Below, in pieces: positions 34,915 to 56,867 of a DNA stretch of 64,000 nt. The notes beneath the pieces were generated by a model. It worked only from the letters and a program-made list of their open reading frames with translations. It had not been told where the DNA came from and did no database searches. This DNA is from a virus: IMG/VR virus record IMGVR_UViG_3300021961_000020, one strand, 5' to 3'. Both the position numbers and the translations under genes were made by a program. Positions within the stretch are counted from its first letter, which is position 1. Each line of letters opens with the position of its first letter.

Positions 34915-34998
34915 TAGGAACGGGGGGACTTGAACCCCCACGACTATATAGTCAGCAGATTTTAAGTCTGATGTGTCTACCAATTCCACCACGCTCCC
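34915..34998 (-). tRNA. trnL: tRNA-Leu(TAA)
   Basis: GGGAGCG/CGTTCCT acceptor, GGAATTGGTAGAC D-arm, CT-TAA-AA loop, long variable arm, GGTTCAAGTCC T-arm; CCA not encoded. Confidence 0.95.
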
Positions 34999-55762: not shown

Positions 55763-55921
55763 ATTGAAAATTGGTTGAAAAGTCATTAACTGTTCAAACC
55801 AATCACGCAAGTGTATACGATAGCAAGACCAATACTTACACCCTCTATATGTTAGTTGGTAGCAAGCAGGTGGTCTGCTATCTTTATCCATATCATCATA
55901 ATGATATGTGTAATCTTCCAT
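55751..55921 (-). CDS. Small protein with LTYRG motif (56 aa)
   Basis: Start moved to MEDYTY (TAATG coupling); contains QLTYRGCKY. Confidence 0.7.
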   Translation of the reverse strand: MEDYTYHYDDMDKDSRPPACYQLTYRGCKYWSCYRIHLRDWFEQLMTFQPIFNRRG

Positions 55922-56034
55922 TACTTCACCTTTACTTGGCAATTTCCTGCCATGCAAAGTACAGCTTGATGACGACGATCTTCTTTTTGCTTCTTCTCTT
56001 TAATGAGTTGAAGAAAATTGAGTTTCTGCGTCAT
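55921..56034 (-). CDS. Small basic helical peptide (37 aa)
   Basis: Read by hand: MTQKLNFLQLIKEKKQKEDRRHQAVLCMAGNCQVKVK*. Confidence 0.65.
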   Translation of the reverse strand: MTQKLNFLQLIKEKKQKEDRRHQAVLCMAGNCQVKVK

Positions 56035-56162
56035 TTTGCCTCCTTAACAAACTTGATGCCACGATAGGCTTCGTTGTATGCTTGAGGTTGCTGCTGTTGT
56101 TGCTGTTGCTCACGACGCTCTACAGTGTCGTAAGATTGTCCACGATAAACGACTTTAGACAT
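56031..56162 (-). CDS. DUF4278-like peptide (43 aa, two YRG motifs)
   Basis: Read by hand: MSKVVYRGQSYDTVERREQQQQQQQPQAYNEAYRGIKFVKEAK*; AGGAG RBS. Confidence 0.8.
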   Translation of the reverse strand: MSKVVYRGQSYDTVERREQQQQQQQPQAYNEAYRGIKFVKEAK

Positions 56163-56198
56163 TGGATTACTCCTGAAATACTAAGGTTAGTTAAAACC

Positions 56199-56471
56199 CG
56201 TTCCTTCAGTCGTTTGCGTCCTTGTTATCGAAACATGCTGGGTCTGTATGATTCATCCAGTGAAGGATGAGGTGAGACTTTTCAGTAGGAGTGAAAAGAG
56301 TTGACTCTTCCAATCCCTGCTTTAACCACTTGTAGTCATCACATCTAAGGAAATCCTCAGGAGGAACATGACTAAAAAAGATCAAAGCGAGTGATAACAT
56401 AGGATGAACGCTCCGTTCCGCGACTTACTTGCGTCTCATTCGCTATTCGCAAACAGCGAATGGGATGAACG
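56199..56471 (-). ncRNA. Tandem glutamine-riboswitch-like RNA (glnA/Downstream-peptide classes)
   Basis: Two CGUUCAUC...GACGCAA...GGAACGG units (56471-56414 and 56410-56199), each with a CGUUC/GAACG P1 and a P2 stem. Confidence 0.7.
56206..56400 (-). CDS. Hypothetical 64-aa protein nested in the second aptamer
   Basis: Open frame from the ATG in the P2 5' arm to TGA in the aptamer core. Confidence 0.55.
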   Translation of the reverse strand: MLSLALIFFSHVPPEDFLRCDDYKWLKQGLEESTLFTPTEKSHLILHWMNHTDPACFDNKDAND

Positions 56472-56479
56472 ACAGGTCC

Positions 56480-56509
56480 ATTATAGACCATCTACATGTA
56501 TATAGTCAA
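56480..56509 (-). promoter_or_regulatory. Sigma70 promoter TTGACT-N18-TATAAT
   Basis: Predicted start site ~56473, immediately before aptamer 1. Confidence 0.8.
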
Positions 56510-56542
56510 GTTCTTTTGTAAAATATGATACAATTTTAAAAA

Positions 56543-56600
56543 ACCTTTAGGATCAAAAAATACCTGGGATTTTTTTTCCCGATATTTTGAACCTAAAGGT
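56543..56600. repeat. Imperfect inverted repeat ACCTTTAGG...CCTAAAGGT
   Basis: 9-bp perfect outer arms plus TCAAAA/TTTTGA inner arms. Confidence 0.7.
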
Positions 56601-56618
56601 CGATTTTGGTTTGGAGTG

Positions 56619-56867
56619 TTACTTTTTCTTTGGTGGGTTCCAAAGTTTTGGATTACTTCTACCTTCTGTTTGTGTAAAAGTGATTAGACCTTCCCTGTAC
56701 TTGTCCCAGTAATGATCAAACAGTTCCACTTTTTTATTGCATATTGCAATGTCAAATTTTCTATGCCCTTCCTCATCATAGTATTCAACAAGATAAGCGG
56801 TGCATGGAAGAGATCTGTCTTCAGCAAGACTTGGATCACAATCTTTGTGGATTATCTTAATCTTCAA
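56619..56867 (-). CDS. Conserved hypothetical protein
   Basis: ORF. Confidence 0.75.
   Translation of the reverse strand: MKIKIIHKDCDPSLAEDRSLPCTAYLVEYYDEEGHRKFDIAICNKKVELFDHYWDKYREGLITFTQTEGRSNPKLWNPPKKK

Follow-up and report, generated by a model that had tools for sequence, protein, structure and literature searches.

The window described here, a stretch of 64,000 nucleotides (nt) taken as a whole from the IMG/VR virus record IMGVR_UViG_3300021961_000020, carries on its minus strand (56509-56160) a promoter and an RNA leader, together with one small gene inside this leader and another one behind it. The source of the window is a T4-like cyanomyovirus; open reading frames (ORFs) of PhoH-, ThyX- and glutaredoxin-like proteins are located nearby, and the closest isolates are Synechococcus phages. 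A sequence-only reading of the same DNA had described the element as a tandem of glutamine-riboswitch-like aptamers with an entire ORF nested in the second aptamer, and all sequence features listed there have been located on the minus strand. The leader of this early cyanophage transcript is probably a two-core glutamine riboswitch that contains a gene. In the direction of transcription its parts are the following, with (1) and (2) denoting core 1 and core 2, P1 to P3 the helices and RBS a ribosome-binding site.

56480-56509, minus strand: sigma-70-type promoter, with TTGACT 56509-56504, an 18-nt spacer and TATAAT 56485-56480
56467-56471, minus strand: CGUUC(1), 5' strand of the outer P1, proposed partner GAACG(2) 56203-56199
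56434-56465, minus strand: P2 hairpin of core 1, UCC-CAUUCGCUGUU / UGCG loop / AAUAGCGAAUG-AGA, with one C/A mismatch
56421-56433, minus strand: linking strand of core 1 and 5' side of P3, with CGC 56433-56431, AAGUA 56430-56426 (5' half of loop E) and AGUCG 56425-56421 (5' strand of P3)
56406-56419, minus strand: GGAACGG(1), AG linker and CGUUC(2), with the inner P1' hairpin GAACG/CGUUC and its loop GAG
56393-56404, minus strand: 5' arm of P2(2), UCCU-A-UGUUAUC, including the nested AUG 56400-56398
56206-56400, minus strand: nested ORF of 64 codons plus UGA, a member of phrog_13397
56219-56229, minus strand: 3' arm of P2(2), GAUAACA-AGGA, within the final codons of the nested ORF
56198-56218, minus strand: shared 3' half, with CGC 56218-56216, AAA, CGACU 56212-56208 (3' strand of P3), GAAG 56207-56204 (loop-E half) and GAACG(2) plus G 56203-56198, overlapping the nested UGA 56208-56206
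56170-56209, minus strand: expression platform, CUGAA(G) 56209-56204 pairing with UUCAG 56177-56173, which overlaps AGGAG 56174-56170
56031-56162, minus strand: downstream gene behind AGGAG, probably DUF4278/IF17-like, 43 amino acids with two YRG motifs

Core 1 is found as the sequence-only reading had it, namely with CGUUC at 56471-56467, a hairpin with an upper stem of 11 bp (CAUUCGCUGUU/AAUAGCGAAUG), the segment GACGCAAGUAAGUCGC and GGAACGG at 56419-56413. The hairpin is part of the minimum free energy (MFE) structure, and at its position the relatives possess hairpins of quite different length and sequence. After the AG linker of 2 nt the 5' half of core 2 begins with CGUUCAUCCU (56410-56401). 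The two arms of P2(2), also named in that reading, close around exactly 163 nt, and this loop contains nearly all of the 64-codon gene. The motif CGUUCANCC occurs in two copies in the whole 64-kb window, counting both strands, and both copies lie at this element. Compared with shuffled sequences the leader, which measures 334 nt and extends from 56478 to 56145 on the minus strand, folds at z = -3.2, with P2(2) present in both the MFE and the centroid structure. Since the same anatomy recurs with compensatory changes in relatives, CGUUCANCC is unique to the element and the fold is stable, the pattern is beyond chance.

A small hairpin (56198-56183) is situated between the two strands of the CUGAA:UUCAG helix. 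A further pairing, specific to the window, is seen between AAACGAC of the core 2 linking strand (56209-56215, minus strand) and GUCGUUU, codons 4-6 of the downstream gene (56147-56153); in the MFE as well as the centroid structure it lengthens the RBS-masking helix over the whole initiation region.

The promoter, correctly recognized before as TTGACT-N18-TATAAT, scores 11 of 12 consensus matches in a scan. CGUUC(1) starts 8 nt after it (56480 to 56471), and from the promoter position transcription is predicted to start within a few nt of this segment. Among relatives with enough upstream sequence TATAAT is found 7-9 nt before CGUUC in 66 of 90, and in most of these 66 TTGAC[T/A] is located 17-18 nt upstream of TATAAT. 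On the other side of the promoter a long, imperfect inverted repeat with a U-run behind it (56538-56601, minus strand) stands directly after an 82-amino-acid ORF (56619-56867) and ends about 30 nt upstream of the -35 box. This repeat, which gives spurious miRNA-family matches in a permissive Rfam scan, looks like a terminator insulating the riboswitch transcript.

Covariation of the helices among relatives

The element is matched in 403 phage records by BLAST; with over 150 further contigs from pattern scans of IMG/VR, the set comprises 143 unique complete elements. In 133 of them the hairpin of core 2 carries an insert of 140-203 nt; in the remaining 10 the hairpin is plain and measures 12-27 nt. 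Covariation was assessed in an alignment of 63 diverse elements (A2), with slid-partner and shuffle controls (500 shuffles).

P2(2), for which an alignment of homologues had been proposed as a check, does covary. Its pairs 1 to 4 are paired in 133, 133, 133 and 132 of the 133 insert-bearing elements, with three to four pair types each. In the 63-sequence alignment both-sided changes are observed in all five pairs, at values reached by none of the 500 shuffles, and 99% of the cells are paired as opposed to 28-49% with the partners slid. The arms have an energy of -11.4 kcal/mol with their own partners and -8.7 kcal/mol with swapped ones. These exchanges extend into the protein: in the ORF family of the window Leu2 has changed synonymously (UUA to CUU) while the C-terminus has gone from DNK to EAQ, so that the arms pair again, and in another lineage a U-A pair has become C-G at the cost of an Asp-to-Gly exchange.

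P3 (AGUCG:CGACU) is paired at all five positions in each of the 143 unique elements. Its second pair is G-C in 124, A-U in 15, U-A in 3 and G-U in 1 of them, with a both-sided change in 18. A scan of this position finds AAUCG together with CGAUU in 24 of 24 loci and AUUCG together with CGAAU in 3 of 3. The AAUCG variant is present in at least four and the AUUCG variant in at least two nested-ORF lineages, the nearest relative with consensus P3 being 84-94% identical in most and more distant in others. IMG/VR scans restricted to positions 3 and 4 yielded no further variants.

Within the expression platform CUAAA is accompanied by UUUAG in 36 of 36 cases and CUGAA by UUCAG or UUUAG; the pair that varies in alignment A2 is G-C 31 times, A-U 17 times and G-U 15 times. 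P3 and CUGAA:UUCAG are mutually exclusive because both use the same CU. Both complementarities, which the sequence-only reading had noted as such, are thus real helices with covariation behind each.

Some relatives carry further inserts. In the platform loop of many of them (L002 911-960, which is syn9, as well as L018, L058, L094 and L172) a conserved insert of about 45 nt is located between GGAACGG(2) and the anti-RBS strand; it consists of ACGGAUCC, a hairpin and GAGAAGGUUAA, has no Rfam match and is absent from the window. L082 and L122 have, in place of the usual linker of 2-4 nt between GGAACGG(1) and CGUUC(2), a hairpin with inverted ends that measures 63 or 98 nt, which would agree with an insertion into the inner P1' loop. 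One frame of the L122 insert resembles the remnant of a helix-turn-helix protein.

Among twelve cellular-genome matches to an 18-mer, no genuine cyanobacterial chromosome carries this version of the element. Five of them are chance matches devoid of aptamer context, and seven are located on contigs of metagenome-assembled genomes or draft assemblies of unrelated taxa, a few of these contigs being as large as a phage genome, and are read as cyanophage sequence.

Two aptamer cores, probably interlocked

The glutamine pocket needs CGUUC, CGC and GGAACGG (PMC6698751). Both pocket-forming sets are present in the leader, and the pocket nucleotides C1-C5, G18, C19 and G35-G41 (numbering of PMC6698751) are invariant in both cores of all 63 aligned elements. 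Two glutamine-aptamer cores, and a phage relative of the glutamine riboswitches, thus remain of the tandem that had been proposed, but the arrangement is not a simple tandem since one P3 is shared. P3 has its 5' strand in core 1 and its 3' strand in core 2, so that neither core is complete as an independent aptamer.

All segments of the type-I three-way junction, i.e. P1, a P2 hairpin and P3 with loop E (AGUA/GAA), are present in the proper order when the 5' half of core 1 is combined with the 3' half of core 2. We infer an outer core with the canonical type-I (glnA) junction, formed by P1 CGUUC(1):GAACG(2), the core 1 hairpin as P2 and P3 AGUCG:CGACU, and an inner core that would be a permuted junction at the far end of P3, composed of GGAACGG(1), CGUUC(2), CGC, P2(2) and the shared P3. 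The basis for this nested fold is the helix itself: P3 and the loop-E halves bring GGAACGG(2) to the junction of core 1, and the same helix brings GGAACGG(1), joined by a single C, to the junction of core 2. In this arrangement the ORF occupies the hairpin of the inner permuted core, around which P3 of the outer aptamer closes.

The relatives with a plain hairpin provide a natural version of the loop-deleted element for which a covariance-model search had been suggested. Nine of them score 38.4-43.6 bits on RF01739 and hence exceed its gathering score of 35 bits (33 bits for RF01704). The match joins the 5' half of core 1 to the 3' half of core 2 and falls on neither core alone, 38-41 nt being counted as P3 loop; the shared 3' half, which belongs to this match, is invariant or almost so in alignment A2. 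Core 1 alone obtains about 13-29 bits on either Rfam model (maximum 28.5). From the type-I match in the no-insert relatives and from the helix geometry, CGUUC(1) is likely to pair with GAACG(2). The helices are real by covariation, the ORF is coding and the homology to RF01739 members is evident.

A kissing-tandem fold, in which CGUUC(1):GAACG(1) and CGUUC(2):GAACG(2) are combined with an inter-core helix, was also considered and was dropped on geometric reasoning.

The nested gene and the genes downstream

Judged from its sequence, the nested ORF is a real gene. Its ATG at 56400 in the 5' arm of P2(2) and its UGA at 56208-56206 in the aptamer core agree with the earlier description, the stop codon being embedded in AGGACGCAAACGAC-UGA-AGGAACGGG (CGAC-UGA-AGGAACG). 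The encoded protein matches phrog_13397 at E = 3.5e-42, while the counterpart in syn9, gp197, matches phrog_504. In the family of the window the three codon positions have entropies of 0.37/0.22/0.67, as compared with 0.93/0.47/1.22 for the largest class; stop codons abound in the other frames. The nested proteins align as a single family with a hydrophobic N-terminus, two conserved cysteines and a D-A-N/H-D end that is encoded by the aptamer core; in an alignment of 45 sequences (A1) Cys20 is invariant and Cys56 is conserved in at least 90%. An AlphaFold2 model depicts a small helical protein with a mean pLDDT (predicted local distance difference test) of 84.6. The protein has no Pfam match and no Foldseek match in the PDB at E <= 0.001; its matches are limited to uncharacterised cyanophage proteins in BFVD and to unnamed viral clusters in the ESM Atlas.

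The frame is tied to the RNA at both ends. In 108 of 114 elements the nested AUG follows CGUUC(2) at a distance of 10 nt, and in 107 of 114 the frame ends with the U[G/A]A of the aptamer core, within P3/loop E. GGAG in the linker is found in 106 of the 111 ORF-bearing elements versus none of the ten lacking an ORF, and GGAG 56414-56411 is likely the RBS of the nested ORF. Among the 120 homologue clusters that scored best out of 394 hits all proteins end within the aptamer core and none is free-standing. As none of these 120 is found outside the riboswitch, the gene may have arisen in place. Some homologues among P0096-P0120 end with DAKAD and not with DAND, implying that the linking strand of core 2 is longer by 3 nt, and nine other homologues are shorter by five codons because of a UAG within the 3' arm of P2(2).

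The downstream protein belongs to phrog_5049 (E = 2.9e-10), and genes with YRG motifs occupy the same position in relatives. In view of the two YRG motifs and the phrog_5049 match, and with the Pfam match below threshold, the earlier assignment of a DUF4278-like gene is probably right. A 37-amino-acid ORF (55921-56034, minus strand) overlaps this gene by ATGA and has an N-terminus, MTQKLNFLQLIKEKKQ, similar to MNTLxLIKKQI, with which the phrog_545 genes begin that follow the riboswitch in most other phages. At larger distance the window contains a gene for a tRNA whose anticodon is UAA and whose variable arm is long (34915-34998, minus strand, 54.8 bits), and the related contig L019 carries a PhotoRC-II RNA (1021-1116, 57.1 bits).

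Alternative readings and the proposed switch

A number of observations weigh against the interlocked glutamine riboswitch. The window itself stays below both Rfam gathering scores, with 15.8 bits on RF01739 and 13.6 bits on RF01704, in each case for core 1 only; it obtains no RF01739 call because the model cannot align the composite across the P3 insert of about 215 nt. RF01704 reaches 32.1 bits (L005) and 34.0 bits (L038) on core 2 of no-insert relatives, close to its gathering score. The four CGUUC/GAACG segments never vary: CGUUC(1) is the same in 63 of 63 aligned elements, which makes covariation impossible, and the inner P1' helix is likewise invariant. Covariation is therefore silent on which of these strands pair, and their partners follow from model fit and geometry. 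Of the MFE folds of 81 leaders, 71 contain P2(2), 63 the inner P1' hairpin and 78 the anti-RBS helix; none contains P3 or CGUUC(1):GAACG(2). In the window the nested fold lies 5.4 kcal/mol above the MFE, a difference that would need to be made up by ligand and tertiary energy. Besides, AAAG replaces the loop-E segment GAAG in about one quarter of the elements, and the downstream protein matches Pfam DUF4278 at E = 0.015 with 16.1 bits, under the cut-off of 25.3 bits. The MFE pattern across the 81 leaders looks like the ligand-free OFF state with a preformed inner junction.

Three other explanations have to be compared with the interlocked riboswitch. The small gene might be a passenger in an insertion-tolerant loop with no link to sensing, the riboswitch controlling the DUF4278-like gene only. 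In its favour are the 10 of 143 relatives that do without the insert, the inserts taken up by other loops (63 and 98 nt in the inter-core linker and about 45 nt in the platform loop) and the presence of P2(2) in most MFE folds whatever the ORF. It is rather unlikely, however, in view of a start and a stop codon locked to the aptamer, a GGAG that comes and goes with the ORF, the lack of a free-standing copy among the 120 best homologue clusters out of 394 hits, and a ribosome that must melt P2(2), P3 and P1 whenever it translates the ORF. Independent tandem aptamers are less probable still, and we consider them a long shot. Here core 1, closed by CGUUC(1):GAACG(1), would switch the nested ORF, and a type-II-like core 2 with CUGAA:UUCAG as its P2 would switch the downstream gene. 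Tandem glnA RNAs are on record (PMC2864571), each core of the leader contains CGUUCA, a hairpin, CGC and GGAACGG, core 2 approaches or passes the RF01704 gathering score in the no-insert relatives mentioned above, and the MFE structure of the window does pair CGUUC(1) with GAACG(1). Yet this pairing is seen in 7 of 81 MFE folds only, and the covariation of AGUCG with CGACU means that the cores are not independent. By geometric inference, P3 with its loop-E extension places GGAACGG(1) at the far end and out of reach of CGUUC(1). Furthermore, core 1 alone scores far less than the composite, which exceeds the gathering score, and it is kept where the nested ORF that it would regulate is absent.

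The third explanation, a structured leader that has ceased to sense glutamine and serves RNA stability or processing, protein binding or translational coupling of the two small genes, is very improbable. In its favour are the sub-threshold Rfam scores of the window. Against it stand the glutamine-pocket nucleotides, all of them invariant in both cores of 63 diverse elements, the passing RF01739 scores of the no-insert relatives, and the downstream YRG/DUF4278 genes, a type typical of glutamine riboswitches (PMC6212724).

In glutamine riboswitches of type I and type II, both of them ON switches, the ligand competes with an RBS-occluding pairing (PMC6212724, PMC6698751), and the interlocked riboswitch could operate along the same lines. 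In the absence of glutamine CUGAAG would pair just before and over AGGAG, thereby masking the RBS of the DUF4278/IF17-like gene. With glutamine bound, P1, loop E and P3 would form rather than CUGAAG:CUUCAG, UUCAGGAG would be released and AGGAG would be freed, an ON response as in gifB. At the same time the bound fold would take GGAG and AUG of the nested gene into the inner junction and thereby turn this gene down. Ribosomes that translate it must in turn melt P2(2) and, on reaching the UGA in P3/loop E, the outer core (P3 and P1) as well. That translation unfolds the sensor is a physical requirement, because a ribosome cannot coexist with these helices; for regulation it would mean that sensing and translation of the nested gene exclude each other. 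Glutamine binding, the direction of regulation and the effect of ribosome traffic are in this scheme deduced from the RNA and its known relatives. The outcome may be reciprocal control, a timer or mere tolerance. A ribosome-gated switch with two sites and two outputs, cooperatively ON for the IF17-like gene and OFF for the nested gene, with the folding of the sensor delayed or reset at every termination by ribosomes that load on the nascent nested ORF, is offered tentatively as one possible form.

In order to place the element among known systems, it may be compared with glutamine-I RNAs (RF01739) such as the Synechocystis gifB/IF17 leader (PMC6212724). Common to both are the CGC linking strand, P1 of CGUUC/GAACG, a P2 with UCC/GGA at its base, P3 between the loop-E halves AGUA and GAA, probably a DUF4278-type gene downstream, and a competing anti-RBS pairing, with an ON logic that is proposed for the phage element. 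In the phage element, however, P3 is no hairpin but spans about 215 nt with a permuted pocket-forming core and a whole gene, and possibly two ligand sites and two regulated genes are present. With glutamine-II RNAs (RF01704, the Downstream-peptide motif; PMC6698751) the element shares identical pocket nucleotides, and it is possible to depict core 2 together with CUGAA:UUCAG and GGAACGG in the type-II manner, as P1, pseudoknot and P2; those RNAs are marine picocyanobacterial and stand upstream of short YRG peptides. In type II, GGAACGG is located in the loop of a 3' hairpin and forms a pseudoknot with the 5' CGUUC. The covarying helix CUGAA(G):(C)UUCAG of the leader encloses GGAACGG, and at the same time it is the anti-RBS helix of the type-I description and excludes P3. 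Differences are the loop of the P1 hairpin, which measures 3-20 nt in known examples but 163 nt, with an ORF, in the leader, a further hairpin in the pseudoknot loop and a linking strand that pairs with core 1 to form P3. Like tandem or cooperative riboswitches, with tandem glnA RNAs (PMC2864571) as an example, the leader has two ligand-pocket units in contact with each other; contrary to them, neither unit is complete, and the units are domain-swapped via one shared helix and nested instead of side by side.

Tandem glycine aptamers are a further case of tandem or cooperative riboswitches. ORFs of homing endonucleases or maturases sit in the loops of group I and group II introns, and in leader-peptide attenuators such as trp the position of the ribosome decides the RNA fold. 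With the intron ORFs the element shares an RNA helix that closes around a coding sequence, and with the trp attenuator the selection of a fold by ribosome position. Unlike these systems, it has a metabolite sensor in place of a ribozyme as host RNA, an enclosed ORF for a conserved folded protein, as opposed to a sensor peptide rich in particular codons, and start and stop codons that belong to the aptamer. Full-text searches of the literature and the supplements of Weinberg 2010, a coverage that excludes Ames & Breaker 2011, revealed neither a gene placed within a glutamine aptamer nor interlocked cores.

Riboswitch aptamers are usually treated as compact non-coding units of 50-150 nt. The covarying aptamer helix described here spans an entire protein gene, and with its two interlocked cores the leader departs from this assumption; covariance-model scans miss the element because of the gene-sized insert and the interlocked cores.

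Glutamine riboswitches have already been reported in cyanophages (PMC9964418), and a census from the Breaker laboratory, according to which phages rarely use riboswitches, lists them in two cyanophage genomes only (PMC5473149), compared with the 403 phage records in which the present element is found. The leader offers a natural case for studying translation versus ligand sensing on one mRNA, and it would link early phage expression to the nitrogen status of the host via IF17-like peptides in very abundant ocean viruses.

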